This document shows positions 38,916-59,367 of a stretch of DNA of 64,000 nt, piece after piece. The DNA lies in contig JAHRVG010000023.1 of the NCBI GenBank assembly GCA_019090795.1, positions 16,178 through 80,177 of the forward strand. Reading direction: 5' to 3'. Made by a program: the position numbers and the translations under genes. The notes beneath the pieces are model-generated. The model saw nothing but the letters and a program-made list of their open reading frames with translations. It did not search any database and was not told where the DNA came from. Each line of letters starts with the position of its first letter. Position 1 is the first letter of the stretch. The stretch is from Paracoccaceae bacterium (GTDB taxonomy: Bacteria; Pseudomonadota; Alphaproteobacteria; Rhodobacterales; Rhodobacteraceae).

Positions 38916-38927
38916 ATGGAGGAAAAA

Positions 38928-41869: not shown

Positions 41870-44800
41870 TTAACGCCGCTTAATTGTGTAAACAGCACCG
41901 GCATCCATTGCTCCCAGCGGGCTTGTCCCGCCATCCGCCCAGTGGATAACCCCGCCACCAATAGCCTTATGTGCGCCCAGCCCGAAGTGCAGGATTGGGG
42001 CGTCAAACGACATGAAACCACCGCCCAGTTGCAACTCACGACTGGCGGTTTTGCCATCGCCATAGGTTATTTCGACTGTGGTTCCGATGCTGTGGAAATT
42101 GCCATGCTGGTCGGCAAATTCAAAGCCGATGGCGTTGTCCTTTTGCGTGTTGTTGCGAAATACCGTGATCGGCCCGTTGACCGGATGGGTGACCAGATCA
42201 ATATCGCCATCAAGGTCCATGTCAAAGGCGGTGGCTGCGGCGGTCATCAGGTAATCTTCAAGGCCAAAGGGGCCGGAGGCCTCGGTGAAACGACCATCCC
42301 CCTGATTGTGGAAAAACAGGTTCGAGGGGCTGACCTCGTTTGGCACCCATGTGCCGTTGACGATGTAAACGTCGAGGTACCCGTCATTGTCGAAATCGGC
42401 AATTTTGGTATCCCAGCTCCAGCCCCCAACCTCCAGTCCCTGCGCCTCTGCCACATCCGCGTAAATCGGGCCGTTACCGCGTTCCAGCAACACGTTTGAG
42501 CGTAAAACCTGGGGCAGGGCGATGGCGCGCTCGGTAGCACTGGCGCGGTGGACCGGCCAGAAATGGATCGTGCAATAGGCCTTTGCCAGCGGCTGGCCTT
42601 TGGGGATGAGCTGGCAAATCGTCGGGTCTTTTTGTTGGATTGCCAGATCCTTGACCAGCATCGCCTTACACTCCCCTTGATCGCGCCCGCGCAAGTTCTG
42701 GCATTTACCCGCATAGCTCGGGTCAAAATTATTGCCGGATTTATACCATTGTTTCACCGCCATGTTGCGCAGACAGATCGCCCGATCCGTATCCCGTTTG
42801 ATGCTGTCACAATAGCGCGCCAAGGGCTGCATCTTGAGGGTTTTGGATACTCCTGAAGAGCGTCCGGCAATCTGTGCCAGATAGATTTCGGGCATGCCGT
42901 CATTGTGCAGATCAGCAGTTTTGATCGCCATGGTGGTGGTGGTGGTTTGCGGAATGATCCCGTCCTGATAGGTGATCTGGCTAAACTCGCCTGTCCCGTC
43001 ACCAAAGTAATAGGCATCGGGCACCTCGAAGTCATTACCCACCAGCAAATCGCTGTGGCCATCCCGGTTAATGTCGGAAAACAGGATCGACAGGGTTTCG
43101 CCGGGCTGGGCTGGCAGGTCGGTGTATTCACTGCCATCCATCACCCCGTTCTGGTTAAACAGAATACGATTGCGCGATTCTTCGCCCGGAATGCGGCGGT
43201 ACCAGCCAGCGGCCCAATTCCCCAAAGCCACGTCAAGATCGCCATCCTGATCCGGATCACCAAAACTCAGCCCAATGCTTAGCACTGCGTTTTTGCGATT
43301 GGCGATGGGGGTTAGTCTGGCAATATCAAAGCGTCCCTGATCGTTGGGCAACAGGAAATTACCCGCGCGATAGGTGGTGATGAACAGATCGAGCCAGCCG
43401 TCATTGTCCATATCCACCAGTACCGCGCTAAACACCGGCATATCCGCCAGCGGGCCAAGGGCAAGCGGAATGGGGCTGAACTGCCCTGCGCCGGTATTCT
43501 CATAGATGTACATCCCTACGCGGGTCGAGGCGATTATCAGGTCAATATCTCCGTCGCGATCAAAATCCCCCGACGATAAACCGCGTCCCTCCCAGAAAGG
43601 CGGCCACATGTCCTGAAAGGAAAACTCGATCGGCTTGTCGATGCCGATCTCCCAGCCCTCCAAACGGGTGAAAGGCTTGTTTGCGGCAGGCGAGCGGGGC
43701 TGAAACGGGCGGGCAGTGATTTCGATGGCGGGGGTATCCGCCGCATGGGCCATTGCGATCAGGCTAAACGGTTGTGCCTGCCCCAGCAGCAATTTCAACG
43801 CGCGATCGCTCTGCCACTGGTGATAGCTTTGCGCACCCCCCCCCGCAATCACCCCAAGAATAACAACCACAAGGCTGAGCAGAACCGCCGCACGCATGGA
43901 TATGGCGCGGGCCACAATGAAAAACGAATAGACACTGAAGATCCCCAGTGTAAACACCAGCGCCATGACAAATCCGGGGGCAAGGCCACTGCTGAGCAGC
44001 GCCCCCGCCATCACCACGTCAAAGGCAATCGGCACCGGTAAGAAGGTGCCGACAAGGGCCACCAGCAACACCGTGAACAGGCCGAAACCTACGTCTTGCA
44101 ATACTTCGGGCGGGATCAGCGTTGCCACAGCTGCACCCAGAAACCCCGCCAGCAACATTAGCGGCACAGTTGTTTTCACGATGAACCACAGGTTTTTGGC
44201 ATAAGCCACCAGCACGCCAACCAGCGCTGCCAAAACTGGCTCCGCTGGTGGTTCGCCGCCCGTCAGATCCCAGCCCTCCGGCTCAATCACCGGGGTTATC
44301 TGCAACTGTTCACGCGGCAAAAACCGGCAGATCACCGGCACGGCAATCAGGATCACTGCAAGGCTCAGCACCAACTTGGCCAGCACCATATAAAACGGCA
44401 ACAGACTGAACAACATGGTCAGCACCACGATATTGAGCGTCGGCGAGGCAATCATCGCCGACAGGGTGGTTTCCGCGCGCATCCCCGCCGAATACAGCCC
44501 CTTGGCAATGGGCGCTGCGCAATTCACGCAAACCCCAAGCGGCGCGCCAATGAACATACCCAGCACCGAGTTCACAAACCCGCCGCGAAAACTGCGTTGC
44601 TGGAGATAACCAAAGAAGGTCAGGAAAGCCGCCCCCAGCATGAGGCCAAAACTCATGCCCTTTTTGTTGGTGTCAATCCAGTTGATGGTGGAATAGGCAA
44701 TCCGCTGCACCAGCGGCATATCAGGGCTGACCGGCAGCACGGCTTCGAAACTGATCGGATCCTCAAGCTGGATCGCACCTGACATCAGCATCTTGTCATC

Positions 44801-44908
44801 CAGTGCGGGATAGCGTGACTGGGTCCAGAACAGGGCCGCAAGGAGCAGGATCAGCAGAAGCGCAAAACCGGCACGTTTTTTGTAAGGCTTGGCAATAAGA
44901 CCGTGCAT
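41870..44908 (-). CDS. Fusion of DUF318/ArsP-like permease with FG-GAP (CRTAC1-like) propeller and ASPIC/UnbV domain
   Basis: Hydrophobic N-terminal 360 aa with PLGVCVNCAAP; then DFDRDGDIDL, DMDNDGWLDL, DPDQDGDLDV, DINRDGHSDL, DLHNDGMPEI, DFDNDGYLDV, DMDLDGDIDL; C-terminal GGGFMSFDAPILHFGLG. Confidence 0.85.
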   Translation of the reverse strand: MHGLIAKPYKKRAGFALLLILLLAALFWTQSRYPALDDKMLMSGAIQLEDPISFEAVLPVSPDMPLVQRIAYSTINWIDTNKKGMSFGLMLGAAFLTFFGYLQQRSFRGGFVNSVLGMFIGAPLGVCVNCAAPIAKGLYSAGMRAETTLSAMIASPTLNIVVLTMLFSLLPFYMVLAKLVLSLAVILIAVPVICRFLPREQLQITPVIEPEGWDLTGGEPPAEPVLAALVGVLVAYAKNLWFIVKTTVPLMLLAGFLGAAVATLIPPEVLQDVGFGLFTVLLVALVGTFLPVPIAFDVVMAGALLSSGLAPGFVMALVFTLGIFSVYSFFIVARAISMRAAVLLSLVVVILGVIAGGGAQSYHQWQSDRALKLLLGQAQPFSLIAMAHAADTPAIEITARPFQPRSPAANKPFTRLEGWEIGIDKPIEFSFQDMWPPFWEGRGLSSGDFDRDGDIDLIIASTRVGMYIYENTGAGQFSPIPLALGPLADMPVFSAVLVDMDNDGWLDLFITTYRAGNFLLPNDQGRFDIARLTPIANRKNAVLSIGLSFGDPDQDGDLDVALGNWAAGWYRRIPGEESRNRILFNQNGVMDGSEYTDLPAQPGETLSILFSDINRDGHSDLLVGNDFEVPDAYYFGDGTGEFSQITYQDGIIPQTTTTTMAIKTADLHNDGMPEIYLAQIAGRSSGVSKTLKMQPLARYCDSIKRDTDRAICLRNMAVKQWYKSGNNFDPSYAGKCQNLRGRDQGECKAMLVKDLAIQQKDPTICQLIPKGQPLAKAYCTIHFWPVHRASATERAIALPQVLRSNVLLERGNGPIYADVAEAQGLEVGGWSWDTKIADFDNDGYLDVYIVNGTWVPNEVSPSNLFFHNQGDGRFTEASGPFGLEDYLMTAAATAFDMDLDGDIDLVTHPVNGPITVFRNNTQKDNAIGFEFADQHGNFHSIGTTVEITYGDGKTASRELQLGGGFMSFDAPILHFGLGAHKAIGGGVIHWADGGTSPLGAMDAGAVYTIKRR

Positions 44909-44970: not shown

Positions 44971-45951
44971 CTAGAGGGATTCTTGGTGTAGTGATCCATC
45001 AAGGGCTTTTGCTGCAATCTGGTGCCACCAGTAATCAATACCAAGACGCTCAAGAGTCTTCTTGCGGTTTGCATTCAGTTCTTGGTGTAAGCTAGGGTCG
45101 TTGAACCACTGGTCGAGCTTTGCTTTTGTAATGTGCTGGCTCTGCCAGTCAGGGATTAAGGCAACAGGTAACTGGCGATAAGCTGCCTGGAGGGGGGTGG
45201 CCCGAATTATAGGAACGGCTCCGTATAAGATGGTTTGCCATGCTTTCGGGGACGGATCAATTCCGCCACCTTCGACGCAGAGCACGAAAGCGTGCTGCTG
45301 GACAAGATCCAGAAAGGTATCTTCACTGACCTCCTCATCTAAAACCGTGCACCATTGCTTCCATTCTGTCCGGGCAAGCCTGCTGACCTCCCGACGTATG
45401 TCCCACTGCGGCCCCGGCCGTGCGCGGTGGGCACATAGTATTCGCGGTTGCCGGTCTCGCAAGGGACGAATTTCGGGAACAGCCAGTTCCTGCACGTAAT
45501 TGTTGGTAAAGACCATGCCTAAAGGCAGGGGGGACATTCTGGGATGGGAGTTGTCATCCAGATTTTCCGCAAACCAATGCAGCAGCAAAGGATGACCAAG
45601 TAAATATTCGATCAGGCTCCGTTCCTGAGCATTAAAGGGCCGCCAGCGTTGATCAATCTGGTGGGGAACGGTTACATCTTCAGAGCCGCTGACCAGAACA
45701 AACGGAGCTGAAAGCCCGGGAATGATCTGCTCGACAAAGTAGCGGATCGCGGTGAATGGTTCTCGCAAAGACAGAAAGATATGCTGTGGCTGGGTCGTTG
45801 AAACATTCTGGTGTAGCATTGTCTTTGGTTGATGCCAGTCCGTTAAGACGACCCAGTCACATCGTGCAGCTATGCCAGAAACCTGATAAGCAGAGGCCCC
45901 ATGGTTTTTAGGAAAAAGCCGGGTTGAAAGGCTTTTGATTGTGTCTTCCAT
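44971..45951 (-). CDS. Exostosin (GT47)-like putative glycosyltransferase
   Basis: HAFVLCVEGGGIDPSPKAWQTILYGAVPII...LPVALIPDW resembles the exostosin C-terminal signature. Confidence 0.55.
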   Translation of the reverse strand: MEDTIKSLSTRLFPKNHGASAYQVSGIAARCDWVVLTDWHQPKTMLHQNVSTTQPQHIFLSLREPFTAIRYFVEQIIPGLSAPFVLVSGSEDVTVPHQIDQRWRPFNAQERSLIEYLLGHPLLLHWFAENLDDNSHPRMSPLPLGMVFTNNYVQELAVPEIRPLRDRQPRILCAHRARPGPQWDIRREVSRLARTEWKQWCTVLDEEVSEDTFLDLVQQHAFVLCVEGGGIDPSPKAWQTILYGAVPIIRATPLQAAYRQLPVALIPDWQSQHITKAKLDQWFNDPSLHQELNANRKKTLERLGIDYWWHQIAAKALDGSLHQESL

Positions 45952-46068: not shown

Positions 46069-46908
46069 ATGAAAATGACTAGATATCTTCGATATGCCCG
46101 TACCAGTCATGGAGCACTTGCCAAAAATGAGCAGCACGGTTTCGCGGCACGCTATGCGCTAAGTCATTTTCGCTCAAATACGGTTTATTCATTCATCCCC
46201 AAAAACGGTTGTACGACGATGCGTTATTCCTTTGGCATTGCAAATGGGTGTATTCAGGACAGCGCGGATTTCGAGTGGGTTCACGAAAATAACCGCACCT
46301 TCTCGGCATCTCTGCGGGAACTGGCCTGCGCAAATTATACCTTCGTGATTTTACGCTGCCCCTATACTCGACTTGTCAGCGCCTTTACCGACAAAATCAT
46401 CCATATTGATGACAAACCCAAGAATGGACATCTCTTTAACTTTCGCAAAGCCTCGGGATATTCAGCCGAGGATGTTAATGATTTGTCCTTCCGCCTGTTT
46501 TGTGAAGCTTTGGCTAAACCGGCAGTTCTGCGGGCGGATGTCCATTGGCGACCGCAAGTGGATTATCTTGTTTACGAAGAATATGATTCCTACTTCCGCC
46601 TCGAACAATTTCCCGAGGCTGTCCATGAAATCGAGCGGAATACAGGCATTCTGATCCAGGATGCGCGCCAACTCTCGCGCCATGGAACGGATCAGTTGAC
46701 CCTGGTTTCCGACAGATGCTATGCGGACACGCCGCTTCGGGATCTTATCAAGATGAAAACGGCGGGTTGTATGCCTGCCCATGATGCATTCTATGACCCG
46801 GACCTGAGGCATCTGGTTGAGGATGTATTCAAAATGGATTTCGCATTTCTTGAAACAAAATTCCCGACACCAAAGACGGTCCTTTCGTCAGGGACCGTCC
46901 GTGGGTAG
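46069..46908 (+). CDS. Sulfotransferase family 2 (carbohydrate sulfotransferase-like)
   Basis: 5'-PSB YSFIPKNGCTTMR, 3'-PB FVILRCPYTRLVSAFTDK, DVHWRPQ. Confidence 0.85.
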   Translation: MKMTRYLRYARTSHGALAKNEQHGFAARYALSHFRSNTVYSFIPKNGCTTMRYSFGIANGCIQDSADFEWVHENNRTFSASLRELACANYTFVILRCPYTRLVSAFTDKIIHIDDKPKNGHLFNFRKASGYSAEDVNDLSFRLFCEALAKPAVLRADVHWRPQVDYLVYEEYDSYFRLEQFPEAVHEIERNTGILIQDARQLSRHGTDQLTLVSDRCYADTPLRDLIKMKTAGCMPAHDAFYDPDLRHLVEDVFKMDFAFLETKFPTPKTVLSSGTVRG

Positions 46909-47635
46909 TCCGAGGACAATTTACCTCCATATTGGAAAGCACAAGACCGGCTCCAGTTCGATCCAGAAATTTCTAAAGCAAGCCCAATGCCATTTGGGTG
47001 AGAAGGGGTATAAAGTCATTTCCGATCTCGAAGTTTTCCCCGGGGCTGGGCTGGGCGAAACTTCCAGATTCAACTGTTTTCATATAGCACATGTGTTGCT
47101 ACGGTCGGGTTTGCGAACCCCCGCACGCCTGCGTGGGCGGGTTCCGGTTTTACCAGATTCTGCGAAAGTCGCACGACAAGTGAATGCTTTTCTGGATGCA
47201 CAGATTGAGTCTCGGGCGATTTTGTCAGCAGAAGCGCTAAGCTTCTTGCGTTCCCCCGAGGAACAGGAACTTTACCGGATTATGTTCAAGGGATTTCAAA
47301 TTGTACCGGTTGGGTTTTTCAGGCAACCAGCGGACTGGCTACGCAGTTGGTATGCACAGATTGAAAAGATGGGATTGGAGTATCATCCCGACGCGGCTTC
47401 TAGGCAGGGTATTTTTGATTTTAGCGCAACATCCTGGCTTGTGCAGGATGAGGATATCCGGGCATTTTTTGGCACTGATGGCATCTATGGCAGCTATGAG
47501 AAGGCCATTGCGACATATGGGTCGGTATTGCCAGCGTTTCTGGAGGCGCTGGAACTTGATCCTGATGCGGCCTTTGAAATGGAGCGTATATGGGAAAACC
47601 CGACCACTGGAAGCGGGCCGACAGTGAAGCGGTAA
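46901..47635 (+). CDS. Sulfotransferase-fold (P-loop-like) protein
   Basis: YLHIGKHKTGSSSIQ, ILSAEAL, FFRQPADWLRSWY; start set at GTG 46901, overlapping the upstream stop. Confidence 0.65.
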   Translation: MGSPRTIYLHIGKHKTGSSSIQKFLKQAQCHLGEKGYKVISDLEVFPGAGLGETSRFNCFHIAHVLLRSGLRTPARLRGRVPVLPDSAKVARQVNAFLDAQIESRAILSAEALSFLRSPEEQELYRIMFKGFQIVPVGFFRQPADWLRSWYAQIEKMGLEYHPDAASRQGIFDFSATSWLVQDEDIRAFFGTDGIYGSYEKAIATYGSVLPAFLEALELDPDAAFEMERIWENPTTGSGPTVKR

Positions 47636-47671: not shown

Positions 47672-48829
47672 CTACTGCATCGCAGCAACCTGTCCTTCAA
47701 GCTTTGCGAGCTTGTCATTCAGCTGGGTGATATAGATATGCGCATGTTCAAGTTCGTTCAGCATACCCAACACTTTATTCGTCAACTCATATTCGCCATT
47801 TTCCGGTGTAGGACCGACATTTGGCAAGAAGCTGTTCGTGAACATTGACTTGGCATGTTCCTCAATGGTCGGAAGGTCATAGTTCGTGTTGAACACCCGG
47901 TCACAACCCACGGAACATGAACCTGATGTTGTGATTGTTCCTGTCAAGGTCAGGCTTCCGGTTGGTGACAGGGAGAAAGGTGTCGTACCGGCGGTCAGAT
48001 TCTTTATGACCATGTTGAGGCCTGCGCCAAGTTCCCAATCCTGATTGGTGAAGGTGTTACTCAGCAGTATCTGCGGGTTGCCATTATTTACCAGATGCAG
48101 AAGTTGCCGTCCCGCCCCTGTGCCGCTTACCTCCTCGACCCGTAACGCTGTACTGCCATCGCTCCCCCGCACATGCAGTCCTGCACTCGGCGAATTTGTC
48201 CCTATCCCGACATCCCCATCCGCATCAACATAGATACTGTTGTTCGGGGCACCCGGGCGAATCCGGAACGGCAGTAAACTGCCATTTGTCACATCGCGGA
48301 TAAAGAAGTTGGTTTCATTGCCCGCCATATCCCAGGTTTGTGGGGTGAAACCCGAGGTGCCATTTTGCTCCAGCCGCACGGTCGGGGTGTCCCCATCGGG
48401 GATGTGCAGTTCTACAACGGGGCGGGACGTCCCGAGGCCGACCCGGCCGCCGTCATCCACATAGAGCGCATGGCTCGGGGCGCGGGCTTCAATCGTGAAG
48501 GGGGTACTTCCGCTATCAATATCGTCGATCGAGAACTTGTTAACCCCGCCATTGGCGGAATCATTAAAGGTGATCTGCCAGTCGTTGGTCGGGAAGGATG
48601 CCGATGTGGAGGTATCCTGCGCCCTGATCCGCAGATTATTTTCCTTGAGGCGCAATGTGTCAAAACCAAAGCTTTCGCCATTCACGCAGTCTAGGCCGAC
48701 ACACAAGCTGCCGTCTATGATGACATCGTCCAGATGCACAATATCCGCAGATGTGGTTGTTCCCATCAATCCTGCGCTGACACCAATTGCCAGAGCACCC
48801 AAATGGGCTTTTCCAATAAAACCAGTCAT
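47672..48829 (-). CDS. Secreted phage-tail-fibre-like protein with C-terminal intramolecular-chaperone (S74-like) domain
   Basis: Signal peptide; repeats GRVGLGTSRPVVELH / GDVGIGTNSPSAGLH; C-terminal DRVFNTNYDLPTIEEH...LP...MLNELEHAHIYITQL plus coiled coil. Confidence 0.65.
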   Translation of the reverse strand: MTGFIGKAHLGALAIGVSAGLMGTTTSADIVHLDDVIIDGSLCVGLDCVNGESFGFDTLRLKENNLRIRAQDTSTSASFPTNDWQITFNDSANGGVNKFSIDDIDSGSTPFTIEARAPSHALYVDDGGRVGLGTSRPVVELHIPDGDTPTVRLEQNGTSGFTPQTWDMAGNETNFFIRDVTNGSLLPFRIRPGAPNNSIYVDADGDVGIGTNSPSAGLHVRGSDGSTALRVEEVSGTGAGRQLLHLVNNGNPQILLSNTFTNQDWELGAGLNMVIKNLTAGTTPFSLSPTGSLTLTGTITTSGSCSVGCDRVFNTNYDLPTIEEHAKSMFTNSFLPNVGPTPENGEYELTNKVLGMLNELEHAHIYITQLNDKLAKLEGQVAAMQ

Positions 48830-48863
48830 AGTATTCTCCCTCTCATTGTTTCGGTCAAAGACC

Positions 48864-48911
48864 TAGAGCGTATCTTGTCTTGTCGGTTTACCCATGAGCC
48901 GAGATACGCGG
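48864..48911 (+). repeat. Intergenic element copy B
   Basis: TAGAGCGTATCTTGTCTT-N15-AGCCGAGATACGC; internally an imperfect inverted repeat. Confidence 0.75.
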
Positions 48912-48948
48912 CAACATCGGATATCTAAACAGGCATGCCCCAGATTTC

Positions 48949-49449
48949 TTACTCTTCTATCAGGGCCTTTTGCACTGTAATCACACCGCGTGACACAATG
49001 AAAAAACCGTTCATCAGAAATGGTTTGGAAACTTGCTTTTTTTGCGCCTTCCCCCGACCATTATCAAGTTGGTTCCGGATCGTTACCATCTCATCGGTGG
49101 CGGCGAGCAATTCATAAGAATAAACGCCATCAATCACCGGTGCGACATCACGCAAATGGAATGTTGGGCTGCCTGAAATGGCAAATACATCGGTGCGCAC
49201 ACCTTCGGGGTTCACAACAATCAAAGTAGCATTCGTCAATTTGCCCCAGCTTTCAAACCAGAGTGTTGATGTATTTGTGCGCTCAACCGGTTCGCTGGCA
49301 TAGGCCGCCGTATTGATAAATGCAGTGTTAGTTAAGAATACGAGGACAGCACTTGCGAGCAGTTTGAAAATCCAAGAGTTCATAGCATTCTTTCGGGTCA
49401 AAATTAAAAAGCCGACTTTTGAATATGGGCGGGGTGACAAAAATTGCAT
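48949..49449 (-). CDS. Exported hypothetical protein upstream of the fibre gene
   Basis: Signal-peptide-like N-terminus from the second Met (MNSWIFKLLASAVLVFLTNTAF..AYA); beta-rich mature part. Confidence 0.6.
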   Translation of the reverse strand: MQFLSPRPYSKVGFLILTRKNAMNSWIFKLLASAVLVFLTNTAFINTAAYASEPVERTNTSTLWFESWGKLTNATLIVVNPEGVRTDVFAISGSPTFHLRDVAPVIDGVYSYELLAATDEMVTIRNQLDNGRGKAQKKQVSKPFLMNGFFIVSRGVITVQKALIEE

Positions 49450-49476
49450 GAGACTCGTTCCGAGCGTTCACCATAT

Positions 49477-49492
49477 GTTAACCTGAAATTAA
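49477..49492. promoter_or_regulatory. CtrA-type binding site (GTTAA-N7-TTAA)
   Basis: GTTAACCTGAAATTAA, intergenic, upstream of the 48949-49449 / fibre genes; followed in 11-bp phase by GTAA. Confidence 0.55.
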
Positions 49493-49567
49493 GGTAAATG
49501 TAAGGAGTTTGTTAATGCTTTTAGGCATCTATTTTGCCTGGAAGCGCTTTCGGGTTATCATGATTCG

Positions 49568-50761
49568 TTAAGGGTATTTCTTCTGCCAGCGTGCAGCGGC
49601 TATATTCTGGGCCTGGTTGATCTGATCCGGGGTCATTTTTTGGGAAAGGGCATCTCGCAAACCGGCCAGCGTGTCCGGGTTCCCCGCTGCGGCTAGTGTT
49701 AACCACATATACCCGGTGACAAAATCCTGTGGGACGCCCAATCCCTGATAATAAAGCAGCCCGAGATTTGCCATGGCCAAAGGCAGGCCTGCCTTGGCCG
49801 CCCCTTCAAACCAATGGGCGGTGGTGGGATAATTGGCGTGGGCATCAGGGCCTGTCGCCAGCAGGTAGGCCAATAGAAACTGCGCGACCGGATCGCCCTG
49901 TCTGGCACCGGTTTGCAGTACATTCAATGCAGCTTTTGTATAGTCTGGGGGGATGAGGCGGGGGTCGGGTATAAATCCGGTAGCTTCAAGCAAAGCTTCC
50001 AGATTTTGCGCTTTGTTTTGCCCGCGTCGGCGGTACAGATCGGCAGCTTTTTCGTCGTTTTGCTCAACGCCAAAACCGTTCTCATACATCACCCCCAGAT
50101 TGGTCATCGCGGTTGCAAGCCCGTTCTGGGCTGCTTTGGAAAACCACTCGGCGGCAAGTTCATAATCCTGCGCCACCCCGTTGCCGCGGGTATAAAGCAG
50201 GCCGAGATTGTTTTGCGCACGCGCATCCCCGGCCTGGGCCGGAGCAAGATAAAGCGCGCGGGCTTTGGCAAAATCCTGCGCAACGCCCGTGCCATTTTGG
50301 TAAAGCACCCCGAGGCTGACCGCAGCCGATGCCAGCCCCTTGTCAGAGGCTTGGGAGTATAGCGCCGCGGTTCTGGTGTAATCTTGCGGCACGCCGATCC
50401 CCTGTTCATACATCTGTGCCAGATCGACAAGGTGTTGGGGGTCGCCATCCTCTGCCGCGCGTGCCAGCCACTGCGCCGCCAGTGCATCATTACGTTCCAG
50501 CCCCAATCCGGCACGCAGGTATTTGCCCAGCCGGTTCTGGGCTTTGGAATTGCCCTGTTCGGCCGCCGCTTGAAACCAGAGCGCGGCAGCAGCGAAATTC
50601 TGCGGGATACCCGCGCCTGCATCATAACGTTCAGCCAGCTGAAATTGTGCGTCTGGATTGCCTGTTTCGGCGGCTTGCAGTAGGGTGCTAACCGGCTGTT
50701 GCTGGGACGCAACCGGAGCCGCCACCCCCAAAGCCAGCACCAGAGATAAAATCCTGAACAT
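49568..50761 (-). CDS. Sel1-repeat protein, exported
   Basis: Signal peptide; about eight AQxxLGxLYxxGxGVxQD..A..WF..AA repeats. Confidence 0.92.
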   Translation of the reverse strand: MFRILSLVLALGVAAPVASQQQPVSTLLQAAETGNPDAQFQLAERYDAGAGIPQNFAAAALWFQAAAEQGNSKAQNRLGKYLRAGLGLERNDALAAQWLARAAEDGDPQHLVDLAQMYEQGIGVPQDYTRTAALYSQASDKGLASAAVSLGVLYQNGTGVAQDFAKARALYLAPAQAGDARAQNNLGLLYTRGNGVAQDYELAAEWFSKAAQNGLATAMTNLGVMYENGFGVEQNDEKAADLYRRRGQNKAQNLEALLEATGFIPDPRLIPPDYTKAALNVLQTGARQGDPVAQFLLAYLLATGPDAHANYPTTAHWFEGAAKAGLPLAMANLGLLYYQGLGVPQDFVTGYMWLTLAAAGNPDTLAGLRDALSQKMTPDQINQAQNIAAARWQKKYP

Positions 50762-50838
50762 TCTAGAGTACCGTCCTTTTAATCTGCAACATTTGTAGTT
50801 CTTAAAATCTGTTGCGCCCCTGCTAATTGGATGCTGCT

Positions 50839-52392
50839 CTAGTTTTTTGCAACATAGTCACGCGCCAGTTTCTGTGCTTGGGCAATTTGCTCGCCAGTCA
50901 TCAGTTTTGCAAACAATGCGCGGGATTTGGCCGCTTTGTGACTGCCCCGCGCAGCGGCGAGATTGGCCCATTTATGGGCCTGCACGTAATCCTGTTCGAC
51001 CCCGGCACCGGTGCCGTATAGCTGGGCCAAACTGTATTGTGCAAAAGCATTGCCCCGCTCTGCCGCATCTGTCAGCAAAACAACGCCCTGAGCCTGACGC
51101 GCGGGGGGGGCGGACTCGGCTAGCTGTATCGCATAAAGGGCACCCAGACGGGCCTGTGCGGTAATATCATCTTGCGCTGCGCTGCGCTGCGCCAGCCATT
51201 GCAGGGCATTGGTATCACCGGTCTGTGCAACCCGGGCAATCCAAATAACAGCTCTGGAGGGTTTTACGGGCAGCTTGGCTTGTCCGGCAACGATCATTGC
51301 AGCAAGCCGTAACTGGGCCTGTGTTTCTCCCTGCTCTGCCGCCTCAAGGTAAAGCGCTGCTGCATATTCCACATTTTGTGCAACCCCGAGGCCTGCCGAA
51401 TACAGGGACGCCAGCGTGGTTGTGGCACGCAAAAGCCCCTGATCAGAGGCTTTTGTATACCATTTCACCGCTTTTTCATAATCTCTTTGGTCGCCGGTGG
51501 CATAGATATGGGCCAGATTATTCTGGGCACCTGCTTCTCCGGCTTTGGCGGCATGGGTCAGCCAGCGCAGGGCCTCGGTGGTGTTCTGGGTCACACCATC
51601 GCCCTGCAAATAGGCCGTGCCCAGCACCCGTTGTGCCATTGGCAAGCCACCATCTGCGGCACGGGTCAGCCAGGCAATCCCCTGTTCGGGATCTTTTGCA
51701 ACGCCGGTGCCCTGCAGGTAATTGAATGCCAAAAACAACTGTGCCTCGCTCCAGCCGGCCTTGGCGGCGGCTCCCAGTGCTTCCAGCGCCTTGCCGGAAT
51801 CTTTTTGTACCCCCCACCCGCGTGCATAATGTTTGCTCAGTTCGAACAATGCTTCGGCACTGCCCCCCTCGGCGGCCTTTTGGAATAAGCGTACAGCGGA
51901 TGCAGGATCCTCGGGCAGACCGTTCCCGGTCTGGTATAACTTTCCAAGGATCAACTGCGATGCGACATCCCCGGCGCGGGCAGCAGTAGACAGTAGTTTG
52001 GCCGCCGTTGCTGCATCAGGTTTCACCGCATCACCGCGCAGATAAAGCTGTGCCAGCAAGGCCGTTGCTGGTATATGTTTGGTGTTAGATGCTGTTTGCA
52101 ACAAGGCAATGGCACGGGGAAAATCAGCAGGCCCGCCTTTGCCTTCGAGCAACATATGCGCCAGCCGGAACTGGGCTTGGGCCTCACCCGTTTTTACCAA
52201 AACCATCAAGGCATTGCGCGCGGTAATAAAATCACCTGTACTGTATGCTTCTTCAACCGATGTCATCGAGGGAGTGGACGGGGTCTGGTCCACAGCCTTG
52301 GGCGTCTCCTGCTCCTGCGCCAGCGTTTCGCCTCCGATTATAAACAAACTACTAACGAGGCAGAGAAGGACAACAGGGGGAATGACACGCAT
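50839..52392 (-). CDS. Sel1-repeat protein, exported
   Basis: Signal peptide; about ten Sel1 repeats; C-terminal AHKWANLAAARG...MTGEQIAQAQ. Confidence 0.92.
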   Translation of the reverse strand: MRVIPPVVLLCLVSSLFIIGGETLAQEQETPKAVDQTPSTPSMTSVEEAYSTGDFITARNALMVLVKTGEAQAQFRLAHMLLEGKGGPADFPRAIALLQTASNTKHIPATALLAQLYLRGDAVKPDAATAAKLLSTAARAGDVASQLILGKLYQTGNGLPEDPASAVRLFQKAAEGGSAEALFELSKHYARGWGVQKDSGKALEALGAAAKAGWSEAQLFLAFNYLQGTGVAKDPEQGIAWLTRAADGGLPMAQRVLGTAYLQGDGVTQNTTEALRWLTHAAKAGEAGAQNNLAHIYATGDQRDYEKAVKWYTKASDQGLLRATTTLASLYSAGLGVAQNVEYAAALYLEAAEQGETQAQLRLAAMIVAGQAKLPVKPSRAVIWIARVAQTGDTNALQWLAQRSAAQDDITAQARLGALYAIQLAESAPPARQAQGVVLLTDAAERGNAFAQYSLAQLYGTGAGVEQDYVQAHKWANLAAARGSHKAAKSRALFAKLMTGEQIAQAQKLARDYVAKN

Positions 52393-52475
52393 GTTTGAAC
52401 AGCTTCTTTGGTAAAAGGGTAAACGACAGGAAGGGCTAGTTTGCCAGAGGCTTGGTTTGCAATCAATATTTCTTT

Positions 52476-53234
52476 CTAAAAGCTAAAGACCCAGACCAAC
52501 CCACCCGCCAGACACAGAAAACTGCCAAAAGGCAGCGCTGTTTTTCCCTGTAACGATACCCCGCTGCGCCATGCCGCCAGAACCGCCCAGAGTAATGCAA
52601 AAAGGGCCGCGATCAATACCATCAGCGGCAGGCTTTCCAATCCCAGTGCGGCCCCAAGCCCTGCCATCAATTTAACATCACCCAGCCCCAGACCCTCGCG
52701 ACCGCGCAGCATTTGATAGCCAAAGCGCAGCGCCAAAAAAGCCCCGCTTGCGGCAAGGGCGGCGACTAGTGCAGTGGCCAATGTCCGGCTCGGGTCCACC
52801 GCCGCCAAACCTGCCCCGATTAAAAACAAGGCTGCCGTCAGCGCGTCAGGCAGGCGAAAATAGCGGGCATCAATGACCCCCAGCGCCAGCAGGCACCACA
52901 GGTAGGCGGCCCCGAGCAGGGCTTGTGGATCAGATTGCGCCAGCATCACCACCGCGAGTGCGATGAAAACAGCGGCGGCCTCGATCATCGGTAACAGGGT
53001 CGGAATTGCAGCATTGCAATGGCGGCACCGGCCACGCAGGGCCAGATAGGACAGCAGGGGGACCATATCCAAAACCCGCAGCGGTGTTTGACAGGAACAA
53101 CAGTGTGATCGGGTATGGATCACATCTTCGCCCCGCGGCAGCCGGTCACACAATAGCGCCAGAAACGAGCCGATTGCCGGGCTTAACAGCACCAGCAGAA
53201 TATCTGTCGCGGACAGAACCGGTAGGGTGATCAC
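52476..53234 (-). CDS. gspO: Prepilin peptidase / N-methyltransferase (A24)
   Basis: GSFLALLCDRLPRG, RSHCCSC..CRHC, IDARYFRLPD, GLGLGDVKL, LPFGSFL. Confidence 0.93.
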   Translation of the reverse strand: MITLPVLSATDILLVLLSPAIGSFLALLCDRLPRGEDVIHTRSHCCSCQTPLRVLDMVPLLSYLALRGRCRHCNAAIPTLLPMIEAAAVFIALAVVMLAQSDPQALLGAAYLWCLLALGVIDARYFRLPDALTAALFLIGAGLAAVDPSRTLATALVAALAASGAFLALRFGYQMLRGREGLGLGDVKLMAGLGAALGLESLPLMVLIAALFALLWAVLAAWRSGVSLQGKTALPFGSFLCLAGGLVWVFSF

Positions 53235-53264: not shown

Positions 53265-53798
53265 TTGTTTCGGGAATCCTGTTCCGTTATGCTACGCAGG
53301 AAAATAAAAGTAGAGTCCACATTGCCTTATACTGCATTCAAACCGGTAAAACACACCACAGGAAAACAGCCAAAGCCACAAGAGGCCGGGTTTTCCCTGC
53401 TTGAGCTGATGGTTGTGGTGGTAATTATGTCTATTCTGGCACTGGTGATCCTGCCCCGCATTATTGACCGCCCTGACCAGGCGCGGATGGCGCGGGTGCA
53501 GTCTGATCTGGCAGTGATCTCAAGCGCGGTGAAACTGTACCGGCTGGATAATTTCCGCTATCCCACCACGGAACAGGGCCTGCGGGCGCTGGTTGCACGC
53601 CCCTCCAGCGAGCCGGTGCCGCAAAACTGGGCTAGAAACGGTTATATTGATCGCTTGCCCAAAGACCCTTGGGGTGGTGTCTATCAATATCTCTCGCCCG
53701 GCGTGCATGATGAATTCGATGTCTTTACGCTGGGGGCTGACGGGGTTGCGGGCGGCACGGATACCAATGCCGATCTGGGCACATGGACACTGGAATAA
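53265..53798 (+). CDS. gspG: T2SS major pseudopilin G (start uncertain)
   Basis: GFSLLELMVVVVI, YRLDNFRYPTTEQGLRALV, LPKDPWG, DVFTLGADG. Confidence 0.95.
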   Translation: MFRESCSVMLRRKIKVESTLPYTAFKPVKHTTGKQPKPQEAGFSLLELMVVVVIMSILALVILPRIIDRPDQARMARVQSDLAVISSAVKLYRLDNFRYPTTEQGLRALVARPSSEPVPQNWARNGYIDRLPKDPWGGVYQYLSPGVHDEFDVFTLGADGVAGGTDTNADLGTWTLE

Positions 53799-54271
53799 CC
53801 CCCCGCCCCGCGCCAGATGCGGGGTTCACCCTGATCGAGCTGGTTATAGTGGTTACGGTCTTGTCGATCCTGACCGTCAGCGTCGGTCTGTCGATGTCAT
53901 TTGGCCGTCCGGAGCGGCGCGCATCCGATGATGCCCATCGCTTGCAGGACAGTTTCACCCGATTGCAGCAGGGGGCGATTTACAGCCGTGTACGGCGCGG
54001 GCTGACGATCTCGAACAGGGGCTGGCAAGTGGCGCAGTTTGATCCGGCAACCGGCATCTGGAATACACAGGGGTATGTGCAGCGCTGGCGTGGTGGCGCA
54101 TCCTTTCGAGTGCTGGAGCGCGCTTTTCCCCTTGGGCCCGGGGGCGCGCCGGATGTTGTCTTTCTGCCGGATGGCCATTCCACTGCCTTTGAAATCACCC
54201 TGAGCTACGGCGAGAGCTTCACCCTTTGCCAAAATGATGGCTGGACGGGGCTGATATGCGACCTCTCGTAA
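53783..54271 (+). CDS. gspH: T2SS minor pseudopilin H
   Basis: GFTLIELVIVV; VFLPDGHST; position after gspG. Confidence 0.85.
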   Translation: MDTGITPRPAPDAGFTLIELVIVVTVLSILTVSVGLSMSFGRPERRASDDAHRLQDSFTRLQQGAIYSRVRRGLTISNRGWQVAQFDPATGIWNTQGYVQRWRGGASFRVLERAFPLGPGGAPDVVFLPDGHSTAFEITLSYGESFTLCQNDGWTGLICDLS

Positions 54272-54633
54272 GCAGTGCCAAAGAGCGCGGCATTACGCTG
54301 CTGGAACTGATGATTGCGATTGTGGTGCTGTCGGTGGGCACGCTCGCGGTAATCCGCACGCTGGATCACTCAACCCGCCAGATCGGCGAGGCGCCGGCGC
54401 GGTTTCTTGCCCTGAGCGTGGCACAAAACCGGGGGCAGGAGTTGGCGGTTATGGGGTTGGCACTGGGGCGCAACCTGCCTGTACGGGTGTCACAGGGGCC
54501 GTATGAATGGGATGTTTCCCTGGATCCGGAGAAAACCGATTCCGGCCTGTACGAGATCACCATCACCGTAAGCAGCGATGGGTTGCCCGGTGCCCTGTTG
54601 GTCAGTTATGCCCCATGGGAGCCGCCCAGATGA
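54256..54633 (+). CDS. gspI: T2SS minor pseudopilin I
   Basis: GITLLELMIAI; short pilin; position in operon. Confidence 0.85.
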   Translation: MRPLVSSAKERGITLLELMIAIVVLSVGTLAVIRTLDHSTRQIGEAPARFLALSVAQNRGQELAVMGLALGRNLPVRVSQGPYEWDVSLDPEKTDSGLYEITITVSSDGLPGALLVSYAPWEPPR

Positions 54634-55241
54634 GCCGCAAAACCCGGCATGATCAGGGGATGACCCTGATCGAGTTGATCATCGTGCTGGCGGTGTTCGC
54701 GCTAATTGCCACGCTAAGCCTGCAAGCGCTGTCAGGCACTTTGCGCAGTCGCGACCGGCTGGTGGCGTTGGAGGAAAACACCGCCGACATCACCCTTGCC
54801 TTGTCTTTGCTGCGCGCAGATCTGCAAGCGGCGGTGCCGCTGGTCTTTCATACTCCCGGCGGTCTGGACCATTCCGCGCTTGAGATTGCGCCGGGAGGGC
54901 AGAGGTTGGCGCTCTCGCTAAGCGGGCAGATGGATTTACCGGGGGTATCGCTGGCGGGGCTGGGGCGGGCAATCTGGAGATTTGATCCGGCACGGGGGCA
55001 GTTGACACGGGCGAGCTGGCCGGTGCTGATCCCCGCAACACAAGCCGCGCTCAGCCCCGAAGTGGTGCTGGCGCGCGGCATCATCGGATTTGAAATTCGC
55101 ACAATGACCCCAGAATTCCGCTGGATAACCGGGCCGGACCCCAACCTCGGGGGCACTGGCAGCGCGCTGCCCCGTGCGGTAGAAGTGACCCTGACCAGCG
55201 TTGAATTTGGCCGCATCAGCACGCTTGTGAGCTACCCATGA
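54630..55241 (+). CDS. gspJ: T2SS minor pseudopilin J
   Basis: GMTLIELIIVL, LRADL, LPRAVEVTL; start reassigned to ATG 54630 (ATGA overlap). Confidence 0.88.
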   Translation: MSRKTRHDQGMTLIELIIVLAVFALIATLSLQALSGTLRSRDRLVALEENTADITLALSLLRADLQAAVPLVFHTPGGLDHSALEIAPGGQRLALSLSGQMDLPGVSLAGLGRAIWRFDPARGQLTRASWPVLIPATQAALSPEVVLARGIIGFEIRTMTPEFRWITGPDPNLGGTGSALPRAVEVTLTSVEFGRISTLVSYP

Positions 55242-56185
55242 GACAGGTGTGCAGGCCACCCCCCAAATCAATCCGGGGTCTTGTACTGATCAACGCGCTG
55301 TTGGTGGTTGCGGCCCTCTCGGCGGTGGCGGTGTTGCTGTTGCAAACGGCTGAAACCGCCCGCAATCGCCAGCATTATGTGCAAGAGGTGGCCCAGACCC
55401 AAGCTTACCTTGACGGGTTTGAATTGTTGCTGCGCGGCTTGCTTGATGCGGATCGGGCACGCGGGAATGTGGATCATTCCAAGGAGCCGTGGGCGCAGAA
55501 AAACTACACAGTTGAAATCGACCGCGGCCATATCAGCGGCACCCTGCGTGATTTGCAGGGGCGGTTTAATCTGAACTGGCTGGCAGGGGGCGATAGCAGT
55601 TTCGGGCCCGAAGCGTTCAAGGCATTGATGCAGGGTATCGGGCAGCGCAGCAGCCTGGCAAACGCGATCATGGACTGGGTGTCAGAGGATGGCCCGCAAA
55701 ACCTGACCCCCTATCTGACGCGCAGCCCCGGCCTTGCGCCGGTGGGGGGGAATATTGAATTGCTTGATGAATTGCGCCTAGTCAAGGGGATGACACCGGC
55801 CATATTCACCCGTCTGGAAACAGTGCTGACGGCGGTACCCTCTGAGGGGGTGGTCAATATCAATACAGCACCTCGCGCGGTGTTGCAGGCGCTCATGCCA
55901 AAGGTCTCCTCGGGGGTTATCGGGGCGCTGGTGGCGGAACGGGACGGCGAACCGTTTGAAACGGACGAAGCGGTTTATATTTACCTGCAGGGGGTTTTGA
56001 GCGAAGAAGAGCTTGAAAAAATCCCAAGCGGTGTCTTTGTGACCTCAAGCCACTGGTTTGAGGCGGAAATTTCTGCCACTCTCGGGCAAACCCAACTCTG
56101 GCGGCGGGTAATCTTTCGCCGCTCGGGGGAAAGCGGTAAGACGCGGGTGGAGTACCGGCTTACACCCAAAGCAGAAGCACGATGA
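55238..56185 (+). CDS. gspK: T2SS minor pseudopilin K
   Basis: GLVLINALLVV, DLQGRFNLN, IMDWV, ELRLVKGM, NINTAP. Confidence 0.92.
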   Translation: MRQVCRPPPKSIRGLVLINALLVVAALSAVAVLLLQTAETARNRQHYVQEVAQTQAYLDGFELLLRGLLDADRARGNVDHSKEPWAQKNYTVEIDRGHISGTLRDLQGRFNLNWLAGGDSSFGPEAFKALMQGIGQRSSLANAIMDWVSEDGPQNLTPYLTRSPGLAPVGGNIELLDELRLVKGMTPAIFTRLETVLTAVPSEGVVNINTAPRAVLQALMPKVSSGVIGALVAERDGEPFETDEAVYIYLQGVLSEEELEKIPSGVFVTSSHWFEAEISATLGQTQLWRRVIFRRSGESGKTRVEYRLTPKAEAR

Positions 56186-56195
56186 AAGGGACTAG

Positions 56196-57368
56196 TTGAA
56201 ACGCGGTAAAGAGGATAACGGCCAGGAATTTTTTCGGCTGGGGCAGGAAGGTCCCTTGCCCGAGGGGTCTTTTGTTGCGCTGGTTGATGGGGCACAGGCA
56301 CCCCTGTTGCCGCTTGATCTGCCCGCCGGGCTCAAGGGACAGGCGCGCGAGCGGGTGGCCCGTTTGAAAATCAGTGACGGCATCGGCTTACCGGTGGCCC
56401 AAGTTGAATTGCGCCCCTTAGCCGCCAAACCTCACAATACCCCGTGGTCCCATGTCATTCTCACCGACACTGATCAAGTGGCCGTCTGGCGTAAGCGCTG
56501 CGAGCGGGCCGGTTCCCGTTGCCGTGCAATCCTGCCTGATTACCTGTCGTTGCCGACCCTTGCGCAGGTCTGGACCATTGCCACCACAGAAAAAATCACC
56601 ACTGCCCGGCTCGGGCTGGAAGACGGGTTTAGCTGCGAACATGATCTGGCTGTGCAACTGCTGACCAAAGCCGACAAACCCAAAGCTGTGTTTCGCTTGG
56701 GCGGTGCGCAACCAGTGCTCGATCAGCTGCTCGATCAGCTTGCTGTACCGATCTGCAGCAGCGCGGCCGAGCTAGCGGCTAATGACCTGCCAGCGCCCAA
56801 AGTGCTTGGTCATGGCGAGTTGCTGTTTGATCTGCGCCAGAACCCGATGGCAATGTTTGAGCAGTCACGCGCAATGCTGGGGGCCTGGCGGATGCCGACC
56901 TTGCTGGCCTTGCTGGGGTTGGGGCTGTGGAGCGCCAGCGCTATGGTTTCGCTACGTGATTTTCAGAGCCGTGCACTGGCAACCCGTGTTGCCACGGTGG
57001 CCGAGGTGCGTAAGCATTTTGTTTCCAGCGGTCCGGTGCTGGATATCCGCACCCAAGTTAGCCAGACTCTGGCGACGCGTCAGGGGCAAATGCAGGATAC
57101 AAGCGGGCAGATGTTGCCGTTAGCGCTGTTTAAATCTGCCGCACAGATTATGCAGGATCACCCATCAACCCTTGTAACTGCGTCCTTTAATGCAGCGAGC
57201 GGGCTGACGCTATCCTTGGTACTGCCTGATTTTGCCAAGCTTGATCTGCTGGTCGCGGCCCTGGAGGCGGGGGGGATCGCTGTGCAAATTATTGAATCCA
57301 GCTCTGCCGAAGAGGGCGGCGTGAACAGTATTCTTGTGTTGCAGGCAAAAGGAAAGGCCAGGGGATGA
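56196..57368 (+). CDS. gspL: T2SS protein L
   Basis: Actin-like cytoplasmic N-terminus (ILPDYLSLP), one TM, periplasmic C-terminus; position in operon. Confidence 0.85.
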   Translation: MKRGKEDNGQEFFRLGQEGPLPEGSFVALVDGAQAPLLPLDLPAGLKGQARERVARLKISDGIGLPVAQVELRPLAAKPHNTPWSHVILTDTDQVAVWRKRCERAGSRCRAILPDYLSLPTLAQVWTIATTEKITTARLGLEDGFSCEHDLAVQLLTKADKPKAVFRLGGAQPVLDQLLDQLAVPICSSAAELAANDLPAPKVLGHGELLFDLRQNPMAMFEQSRAMLGAWRMPTLLALLGLGLWSASAMVSLRDFQSRALATRVATVAEVRKHFVSSGPVLDIRTQVSQTLATRQGQMQDTSGQMLPLALFKSAAQIMQDHPSTLVTASFNAASGLTLSLVLPDFAKLDLLVAALEAGGIAVQIIESSSAEEGGVNSILVLQAKGKARG

Positions 57369-57871
57369 GCGAGCGTTTGATAACCTTTCTGTTGGCTCTT
57401 AGCCCGCGTGAACGCTGGCTGTTGGCGGGGCTTTTCGGGCTGGCGCTTCCGTTGGCTGTGGGGTTCCTATGGGTCGCCCCCCTCAATCAGGCGCGCATTG
57501 CGGCCGCGCAGGATTTTGCTGTGGCCCAAGACCTGCAGGCCTGGGTCCAGGCGCGCGCAGCGGAAAATGCTGTACTGGCCGGGAATGGCCTGCAAGCGAA
57601 TGTGCCGTCCCAAAGCTACCCCCCGATCGGCATCAGCGGTATCGAGGAGAGCCTTAAGGGCGCAGGCCTGCGCGAGGCCGTTACCCGATTGGCCAACAGG
57701 GACGGAGAGGCCATCGAGCTGCGCTTTGATTTGGTGGATTTTCGCCAACTAACCGACTGGCTGGCGGAAACGCAGCCCGACTGGGGCTATGACTTGCAAG
57801 CGTTCCGTTTTGAACGGGCAGAGCGGGCCGGGCTGGTCGCAGCTGAATTTTTGTTGGGATTCCCAAAATGA
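57365..57871 (+). CDS. gspM: T2SS protein M
   Basis: LSPRERWLL + TM + coiled coil + ferredoxin-like C-terminus. Confidence 0.88.
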   Translation: MSERLITFLLALSPRERWLLAGLFGLALPLAVGFLWVAPLNQARIAAAQDFAVAQDLQAWVQARAAENAVLAGNGLQANVPSQSYPPIGISGIEESLKGAGLREAVTRLANRDGEAIELRFDLVDFRQLTDWLAETQPDWGYDLQAFRFERAERAGLVAAEFLLGFPK

Positions 57872-59183: not shown

Positions 59184-59367
59184 CTCTCGTTCCTCGTCTC
59201 TGTAAGGGTCTGCGCCCTTAACAGTCCAACTGCTCATGTTTGGCCCCAGTTTCGGGTGCCCGTTTTTTCGCCTTGGGAAAAACCTAGCACACAGCAGGGT
59301 TTTGCGTCTATGAGGGGGGCAACCGATGCCGTTATTAGCCTGTTGATTGTCTTAAAGGAGACACACC

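Follow-up and report, generated by a model that had tools for sequence, protein, structure and literature searches.

Cellular phage-like fibres, described as mosaic adhesive trimers (MATs), and matrix proteins delivered by a type II secretion system (T2SS) are both already known. Here we describe a five-gene block at positions 47672–53234 of a 64,000-nucleotide stretch of DNA from a Paracoccaceae bacterium (assembly GCA_019090795.1, contig JAHRVG010000023.1, positions 16,178 to 80,177; hereafter the window, to which all coordinates refer), in which the gene for a fibre protein of 385 amino acids (aa) stands with those for a small partner protein (p166, from its 166-aa open reading frame, ORF), two Sel1-repeat proteins and the prepilin peptidase GspO. 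In replicons of the Roseobacter group and of some other alphaproteobacteria, the fibre, p166, the periplasmic Sel1 pair and an inner-membrane ArsP-FG-GAP-ASPIC protein share a conserved cassette with a complete T2SS and with genes for sulfotransferases and polysaccharides.

Johnson and colleagues (J Bacteriol 196:4245, cited in PMC10090131) reportedly found in 2014 that the T2SS of Vibrio cholerae delivers biofilm matrix proteins. As in the model proposed below, these are folded matrix or adhesion cargos acting with exopolysaccharide, but they are not known to be trimeric phage-like fibres or to be encoded inside the gsp cluster, and their secretion was demonstrated where that of the window fibre is predicted.

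The MAT fibres of Bdellovibrio bacteriovorus, such as Bd3182 and Bd2133, are cellular relatives of phage tail fibres that bear signal peptides and have only lately been recognised as adhesins; their surface route and anchoring partner are open questions (PMC10769870). The window fibre resembles them in being cellular, in having a signal peptide followed by a conserved beta-rich N-terminal part, in its G-x-VG-x-GT..P..LH-type fibre repeats, in matching the MAT structures 8OJN (by sequence) and 8OND/8OJN (the best Foldseek matches in the PDB), and in belonging to a family with mosaic C-terminal ends, S74 or non-S74, and expanded paralogues; at the N terminus the likeness is limited to the signal peptide and beta-rich conserved body. 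It differs in its size (385 aa against about 1,000 aa), in its dedicated FN3-like partner or fusion, in a helical non-S74 module where MATs have lectin, TNF or beta-sandwich tips, in its hosts, which are non-predatory marine bacteria, and in the T2SS/Sel1/FG-GAP cassette, which is not described for MATs. With S74 phage fibres and tailspikes (endosialidase type, T5 L-shaped fibre) it shares the repeat motif, the fibre fold and a C-terminal module placed after the last 'G-x-LT-x-G-x-LT' strand, and paralogues in the same synteny carry a true S74 domain; the window fibre, however, has a signal peptide and lacks the SDxxxK motif, any Pfam or PDB match to S74, and a phage location. Finally, the window resembles the RepA-type 'biofilm plasmids' of Roseobacter (PMC5030684) in holding RepA/ParA, polysaccharide synthesis genes and an ABC exporter, and the related plasmid pMME07001 also has a rhamnose operon, but PMC5030684 mentions no T2SS, tail-fibre-like or FG-GAP genes. 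No publication on the cassette or the fibre family was found in the literature searched, where the compact fibre family, its FN3-like partner, the non-S74 module and the T2SS/Sel1/ArsP-FG-GAP cassette appear to be undescribed.

A cellular fibre encoded in a block headed by gspO

As the preliminary description of this DNA had it, the block consists of five co-oriented genes diverging from gspG. All five ORFs lie on the minus strand with intergenic gaps of 77–119 bp, and the start of gspG, on the plus strand, lies 30–87 bp from that of gspO. In the order of the block these are:

52476–53234, minus strand: GspO prepilin peptidase, heading the block; polytopic membrane protein with A24_N_bact (PF06750, 1.4e-25) and Peptidase_A24 (PF01478, 1.1e-18).
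50839–52392, minus strand: Sel1-repeat protein, 517 aa; eight stretches of PF08238 (2.4e-65), signal peptide, syntenic orthologues.
49568–50761, minus strand: Sel1-repeat protein, 397 aa; seven stretches of PF08238 (1.2e-57), signal peptide, syntenic orthologues.
48949–49449, minus strand: p166, small exported partner, 166-aa ORF; probable start at 49383, giving 144 aa; FN3/Ig-like beta-sandwich.
47672–48829, minus strand: fibre protein, 385 aa; signal peptide, three repeats of about 80 aa, CD-type C-terminal module, coiled coil.

Four signal peptides had also been proposed, and a hydropathy heuristic together with inspection by eye fits all four: in both Sel1 proteins and in p166 a hydrophobic stretch at the N terminus leads to an A-x-A-like site, and the fibre has a weaker, Ala/Gly-rich segment (MTGFIGKAHLGALAIGVSAGLMGTTTSA, followed by D).

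The fibre ORF matched no Pfam or NCBIfam family. The repeats announced earlier as G(R/D)VG(L/I)GT..P...LH are present as two motifs, GGRVGLGTSRPVVELH at residues 127–142 and DGDVGIGTNSPSAGLH at residues 204–219, and several lines of evidence support the claim that the protein is a phage-type fibre. PHROG tail-fibre families match residues 195–311 (phrog_9942, 3e-07), and the sole meaningful sequence match in the PDB is 8OJN (phmmer E 0.013, on the repeat), which is the Bdellovibrio MAT fibre Bd3182 (PMC10769870). An AlphaFold2 model of the fibre, computed as a monomer (pLDDT 79.5), was matched by Foldseek to 8OND (E 6.9e-05) and to 8OJN and 8ONC (probability 1.0, TMt 0.46–0.51), with T4 gp34 and the T5 L-shaped fibre among the further PDB matches. 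In BFVD it matched 75 viral proteins at E<=1e-3, and for many of these the annotation is that of an S74 tail fibre from a cyanophage or marine virus.

The body comprises three tandem units of about 80 aa, revealed by an off-register second BLAST high-scoring segment pair (E 4e-11). The repeats of the very conserved N-terminal body end in G-x-VG-x-GT..P...LH. By residue, conservation peaks at 31–195, is lowest in the third unit at about 226–285, and recovers over the C-terminal module; it is this variable third unit that is likely to determine specificity. Four cysteines, C43, C48, C305 and C309, are invariant in 25 homologues, the latter two being nearly invariant in 120, which fits an extracytoplasmic protein. 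Sequence and model together identify the gene product as a cellular fibre of the structural kind of phage tail and MAT fibres, predicted to be exported by a Sec-type route.

The family is large: at least 7,665 homologous clusters were found at E<=1e-3, in many phyla, cellular and unannotated. Full-length relatives at 55–62% identity occur in Rhodobacterales, Hellea, Maricaulis, Breoghania, Shewanella and Pseudoalteromonas, and the N-terminal body is 66–84% identical in metagenome-assembled genomes (MAGs) labelled Acidobacteria, Deltaproteobacteria, Bacteroidota and Deferribacteres. In MAGs labelled Acidobacteria, Thermoanaerobaculia, Bacteroidota and Deltaproteobacteria, where the N-terminal body is 74–84% identical, the partner domain is only 25–50% identical, a pattern that points either to recent horizontal transfer on a wide scale or to very strong constraint. 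Tandem arrays of fibre paralogues were also seen, with seven copies lacking p166 in Marimonas arenosa and five fused copies in an Acidobacteria MAG; such arrays mix S74 and non-S74 ends, as in the paralogue expansion of MATs.

A non-S74 module at the S74 position

The C-terminal module of the fibre is helical (residues about 301–375) and is followed by a coiled coil. The preliminary description had called this end chaperone-like and noted CDRVF in place of the canonical S74 motif. The second point is correct: CDRVF occupies residues 309–313, with C305, C309, D310 and F313 invariant in the 25 homologues and nearly so in the 120, and the run C309-D310-R-V-F-N has no Lys at +5, a position that is variable in both the 25 and the 120 homologues, leaving no SDxxxK. 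The invariant polar residues of this CD-type module are C309-D310, K352, N358, E359, E361 and H364.

The first point holds as to place but not as to descent. In the syntenic fibre of Sulfitobacter aestuariivivens, 56% identity over residues 11–300 is followed by GSLTQN-SDKHAK and a Pfam-flagged S74 domain, and where that protein has SDKHAK the window fibre has SCSVGCDRVF; the module thus occupies the S74 slot. S74 homology, on the other hand, was undetectable. Pfam S74 (PF13884) gave no match at E<=10 in any of 25 family members, and a profile of the C-terminal region run against the PDB returned chance coiled-coil matches and no S74 structure, in a search where, as a positive control, the S74-tail profile does recover phage tail-fibre chains. 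An hhalign comparison with the S74 tails of paralogues reached a probability of 96% when shared flanks were included and fell to 1.4% (E 0.036) with trimmed cores. The higher value is an artefact, because the shared last fibre strand and coiled coil were part of the alignment, and from the trimmed value we rejected homology and kept positional equivalence alone.

S74 ends occur within the same family in Breoghania corrubedonensis and Tateyamaria as well, and among the classified fibre ORFs 119 were CD-type, 18 S74, 18 of other kinds (for example with short Cys-rich tails) and 10 truncated. On these sequence comparisons the C-terminal module has been swapped at the exact S74 junction, and by analogy with S74 in the paralogues the CD-type module would serve trimerisation.

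p166 as the predicted base of the fibre

Searches of Pfam, NCBIfam and PHROG assigned the 166-aa ORF to no family. Since its homologues measure about 139 aa, its true start is probably M23, at 49383. A profile search returned 247 representative clusters, nearly all of them stand-alone proteins of 140–150 aa, together with one filamin-like eukaryotic match that reflects the Ig-like fold. The AlphaFold2 model is a beta-sandwich (pLDDT 90.6), for which Foldseek gave weak, generic FN3-like matches, none at E<=1e-3.

That p166 is a partner of the fibre, as first proposed from the window, was borne out by its distribution. The p166 hidden Markov model (HMM) matches either the ORF directly upstream of the fibre or the fibre ORF itself, and in 90 of 120 distinct loci p166 is either the direct neighbour of the fibre or its N-terminal fusion partner. 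Fused proteins, which occur in many phyla, run from a signal peptide through the p166 domain and a low-complexity linker into a fibre body that begins at the point where the signal peptide of the fibre itself would end. The fusions therefore indicate a physical partnership in which p166 sits at the N-terminal end of the fibre, and by this sequence evidence a putatively exported, FN3-like protein of about 14 kDa forms the fibre base.

Linkage of the cassette to the T2SS

The T2SS of the window is complete, with gspC through gspO all present, but split, gspFED lying about 40 kb from gspG–N and gspC:

9476–10681, minus strand: gspF (T2SSF, 1.1e-45).
10678–12126, minus strand: gspE (T2SSE, 2.3e-128).
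12186–14120, minus strand: gspD (Secretin, Secretin_N, GspD N0).
53265–53798, plus strand: gspG (TIGR01710, 1.4e-49).
53265–58668, plus strand: gspG to gspM, then an ORF of 266 aa in the GspN position, with homologues in Rhodobacteraceae loci.
58665–59237, minus strand: tetratricopeptide repeat (TPR) protein, 190 aa, matching TPR families, with a weak BamD-like match.
59386–59811, plus strand: GspC-like protein, 141 aa (T2SSC, 1.9e-06, just above cutoff).

No family was matched by the 266-aa ORF. Each of the 7 Rhodobacteraceae T2SS loci seen keeps the TPR gene between gspM/N and gspC, and the product of this gene may be a secretin pilotin or assembly factor; it has a possible non-canonical lipobox, LLLPTAC. 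Between the two T2SS blocks lie the replication module and the fibre cassette as well as RTX and polysaccharide genes; on the M382, Tateyamaria and Roseovarius faecimaris plasmids the two blocks are contiguous.

The gene-neighbourhood survey for gsp and Sel1 linkage that had been proposed was run over 120 fibre loci, counting gsp genes within the available flanks, with locus ORFs called mechanically from stop to stop and gsp genes in distant phyla detected by BLAST with alphaproteobacterial queries. Linkage to the T2SS was found, unevenly distributed. Any gsp gene at all occurs in 16 of the 120 loci; gsp genes accompany 12 of the 16 loci that have the Sel1 pair and at least 6.5 kb of upstream sequence, against 2 of 31 loci without Sel1, with one gene each.

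Several arrangements underlie these counts. In Rhodobacteraceae, gspM to gspG diverge from gspO-Sel1-Sel1-p166-fibre and, further on, the FG-GAP gene, a synteny seen in at least 10 loci. Two large metagenome contigs carry gspD-gspK-FG-GAP-Sel1-Sel1-p166-fibre with overlapping gene ends, these gsp/module junctions being consistent with translational coupling; a Rhizobiaceae MAG and another contig of 2 Mb carry gspD-gspO-gspG-FG-GAP-Sel1-Sel1 and no fibre; and a Gemmatimonadales MAG has a fused p166-fibre gene with gspH/F/G oriented divergently from it. At least four different gene orders argue against simple inheritance of one layout.

At the level of replicons, a search of PLSDB (72,556 plasmids) found GspL of the window type on 8 plasmids and the ArsP-FG-GAP gene on the same 8. 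The fibre is present on 7 of these; the eighth strain has it on a sister plasmid, and one Diaphorobacter plasmid carries it as well. R. faecimaris pMME07001 (76 kb) has 9 fibre-family matches, most in a co-oriented run with gspO and the Sel1 pair, and a 103-kb plasmid of the biofilm isolate M382 carries a complete T2SS together with the module. GspD, E, K, L and M of this M382 plasmid were detected in the membrane proteome, at 2–3.8-fold higher levels in thiosulfate-treated biofilms, and the same supplement also lists a sulfotransferase-sized protein and CysH (PMC10090131 supplement). The linkage asserted in the preliminary description is thus recurrent, across gene orders and replicons, but it is not family-wide: it is strong in the Sel1/FG-GAP subfamily, not in the fibre family as a whole. 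On a 1.37-Mb contig the cassette is decayed: at least 5 transposase genes interrupt what is left of it, namely the Sel1 pair, an FG-GAP gene, an ORF of 143 aa and an A24 peptidase in truncated form; no fibre gene was called there.

ArsP-FG-GAP-ASPIC, Sel1 and sulfation genes

Next to the fibre, the window has further neighbours of the block:

41870–44908, minus strand: fusion of an ArsP_1 permease, an FG-GAP propeller and UnbV_ASPIC, 1012 aa, with about 9 transmembrane-like segments.
44971–45951, minus strand: 326-aa ORF with no family assigned, between the fibre and FG-GAP genes; kept in Shimia biformata.
46069–46908, plus strand: sulfotransferase-type gene (Sulfotransfer_2, Pfam).
46817–47635, plus strand: second sulfotransferase-type gene, recognised by eye from a related motif.

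After p166, the FG-GAP/UnbV_ASPIC protein is the commonest neighbour of the fibre (25 of 42 genome loci), and in alphaproteobacteria it is fused to an ArsP-type permease. The membership of the cassette as first given stands with regard to the Sel1 pair, which tracks gsp genes, but it had omitted this protein. The FG-GAP-Sel1-Sel1 trio is orthologous (41–59% identity) and lies inside T2SS operons even where the fibre is missing (two contigs), so that neither the FG-GAP protein nor the Sel1 pair is likely to be a chaperone specific to the fibre. NCBIfam matches of the Sel1 proteins to MerG, AlgK, MotX and ExoR were all far below their cutoffs, and thus no specific subfamily can be assigned to them.

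The two sulfotransferase-type genes (46069–47635, plus strand) converge on the fibre gene. Sulfotransferase, 3'-phosphoadenosine-5'-phosphosulfate (PAPS) and glycosyltransferase genes recur beside the module, as do PAPS-reductase and adenosine-5'-phosphosulfate (APS)-kinase genes, in unrelated lineages, which hints at a sulfated polymer or a sulfated protein. The window has at least four sulfotransferase-type genes (18522–19688, 19814–20971, 46069–46908 and 46817–47635), of which one reaches Pfam; the others were recognised by eye from the common motif H-x-x-K-(T/V)-G-(S/T)-(S/T)-S. Two of the ORFs in this set, of 385 and 388 aa at 18.5–21 kb, had been considered as fibre paralogues and were set aside, as they look like sulfotransferases; the fibre and p166 HMMs match only the two known genes in the window.

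A model for export of the fibre, and its alternatives

In the model that we propose, Sec would take the fibre and its base protein across the inner membrane; in the periplasm they would be oxidised and form trimers, and they would then exit through the T2SS of the window. Outside, they would serve attachment or biofilm formation as a fibre of the surface or matrix, which may bind the sulfated polysaccharide made by neighbouring genes, with the FG-GAP protein and the Sel1 pair acting as accessory factors or co-cargo of the T2SS. The preliminary description had cast the Sel1 proteins as scaffolds, a role that they may have. We put the chances of the composite of periplasmic folding, T2SS exit and a surface or matrix fibre at about even. 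A more specific version, which we offer tentatively and on the whole think unlikely, holds that a specialised T2SS with ArsP-FG-GAP-ASPIC and two Sel1 accessories exports MAT-like trimers with their FN3-like base, and that C-x(3-9)-C-D...K...N-E-x-E-x-x-H marks a new trimerisation or auto-processing unit replacing S74; if true, this would name an outer-membrane route for cellular phage-like fibres.

The locus matters in several respects. Compact MAT-like fibres are very widespread in marine bacteria, where they go unannotated, and fusion (Rosetta-stone) evidence identifies a conserved base protein for them. The T2SS provides a concrete candidate export machine for such fibres, with cultured and sequenced carriers in Rhodobacteraceae bacterium M382, Tateyamaria omphalii DOK1-4, Roseovarius faecimaris MME-070, Thalassovita gelatinovora and Sulfitobacter aestuariivivens, and the T2SS/FG-GAP/Sel1/sulfation cassette lies on Roseobacter plasmids of the kind that controls attachment, which makes it relevant to marine surface colonisation.

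Several points weigh against the proposed export through the T2SS. We infer the secretion, the trimeric state and the GspD dependence of the members, and the structure model is that of a monomer of a presumably interdigitated trimer. Gsp genes are missing nearby in 104 of the 120 fibre loci, including those of Hellea, Breoghania and Shewanella, so that other routes must exist or the T2SS must be encoded elsewhere in these. Many of the T2SS-linked loci come from related Roseobacter plasmids, and the counts are not phylogenetically independent. The differential-proteome table of M382 does not list the fibre, p166, Sel1 or FG-GAP proteins, nor any entry within the gene numbers expected for the fibre, p166 or Sel1 (PMC10090131 supplement). 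Finally, since the trio is linked to the T2SS without the fibre, the cassette could be carrying the fibre as a passenger.

A shared address offers a somewhat unlikely, if serious, alternative to this model: fibre and p166 would belong among the surface and exopolysaccharide genes that gather on Roseobacter plasmids, the T2SS would export other proteins, and the fibre would take another route or remain attached to the envelope or capsule. Glycosyltransferase, sulfotransferase, capsule-export, RTX and adhesin genes do abound in the window and on related plasmids, and the 104 loci without a nearby gsp gene speak for such an arrangement, as does Phaeobacter sp. G2, where p166-fibre-FG-GAP adjoins a polysaccharide-export gene about 44 kb from the T2SS on one plasmid, and Breoghania, whose full module has no T2SS within 10 kb. 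It sits less well with a linkage that persists through several gene orders and overlapping gsp/module junctions, with gspO at the head of the fibre's own block, and with the same divergent gspG/fibre layout in the Gemmatimonadales MAG.

The evidence from the trio supports a further alternative, which we consider distinctly unlikely, namely that ArsP-FG-GAP-ASPIC and the Sel1 pair are a T2SS-coupled unit tied to sulfated polysaccharide, to which fibre and p166 were later added, binding the polymer or the propeller, with or without use of the T2SS. The orthologous trio in gspD-gspO-gspG operons without fibre on two contigs, the T2SS linkage that tracks Sel1 (12 of 16 against 2 of 31 loci), and the sulfotransferase and PAPS genes that repeatedly flank the module all speak for it. 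Yet the fibre gene, where present, comes immediately after the Sel1 genes and is co-oriented with them, and fibre paralogues multiply beside gspO in R. faecimaris; moreover, such an addition overlaps with the export model more than it excludes it.

With regard to phages, a scan of IMG/VR with the two most conserved fibre peptides found no relative in 2.9 million contigs. Among the 50,697 phage genomes of INPHARED, tblastn matched residues 85–238 at 30–38% identity in eight cyanophage or pelagiphage records, and neither the N-terminal 85 residues nor the C-terminal 95 residues had any match. The fibre had been described as a domesticated phage-type protein; phage-like it is in fold and repeat, but a phage origin is weakly indicated, the repeat of about 80 aa alone resembling marine phage fibres. 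That the gene is a fibre gene of a phage, prophage, gene transfer agent or tailocin, with its T2SS neighbourhood coincidental, is highly improbable, since the repeat motif and fold common to phage tail fibres, the tail-fiber name and virion Gene Ontology (GO) terms that the Prokaryotic Genome Annotation Pipeline (PGAP) gives to S74 paralogues, and a DUF2793 protein elsewhere on the replicon are outweighed by the signal peptide and invariant Cys pairs, the failure to find, in the scan of window ORFs, any further gene for phage structure or replication (bar that one DUF2793 ORF, of unclear origin), the absence of viral relatives and of the N-terminal 85 residues and the C-terminal module from the phage collections above, and a synteny with non-phage genes that is stable across genera.

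The names given by PGAP deserve a comment of their own. Under the name 'tail fiber domain-containing protein', the S74 paralogues receive two GO terms, 'virion attachment to host cell' and 'viral entry into host cell'; on plasmid-borne paralogues with signal peptides in a T2SS cassette these terms are misleading and likely reflect over-transfer of annotation. On Tateyamaria omphalii pDOK1-4-5 (29678–31624), three 'tail fiber protein' genes of about 200 aa follow the FG-GAP gene and belong to a different family from the 385-aa fibre; this plasmid, too, carries a T2SS.

Replicon context

The window probably derives from a plasmid or chromid. RepA (PF10134, 9.4e-99) and a ParA-like ATPase lie at 27907–30727, at the cumulative GC-skew minimum of about 28–29 kb, and polysaccharide synthesis genes and an ABC exporter are also present; related cassettes were found on complete Roseobacter plasmids of 54–163 kb. 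Consensus scans for promoters and terminators did no better than on shuffled sequence, and the runs holding this sequence were DNA metagenomes only (oil, marine sediment), with no RNA run among them. A DUF2793 protein (25267–26643) lies near the replication module, and on R. faecimaris pMME07001 its orthologue (13053–14084) has ParB on one side and the FG-GAP gene on the other. RTX-type genes lie at 14412–18119, 31863–36749 and 38916–40475; the set comprises a 1235-aa cadherin/Big_9/RTX protein, three RTX/serralysin-like proteins and one RTX protein with a VWA/integrin-beta-like domain, and these are presumably cargo of type I secretion encoded on the same replicon.

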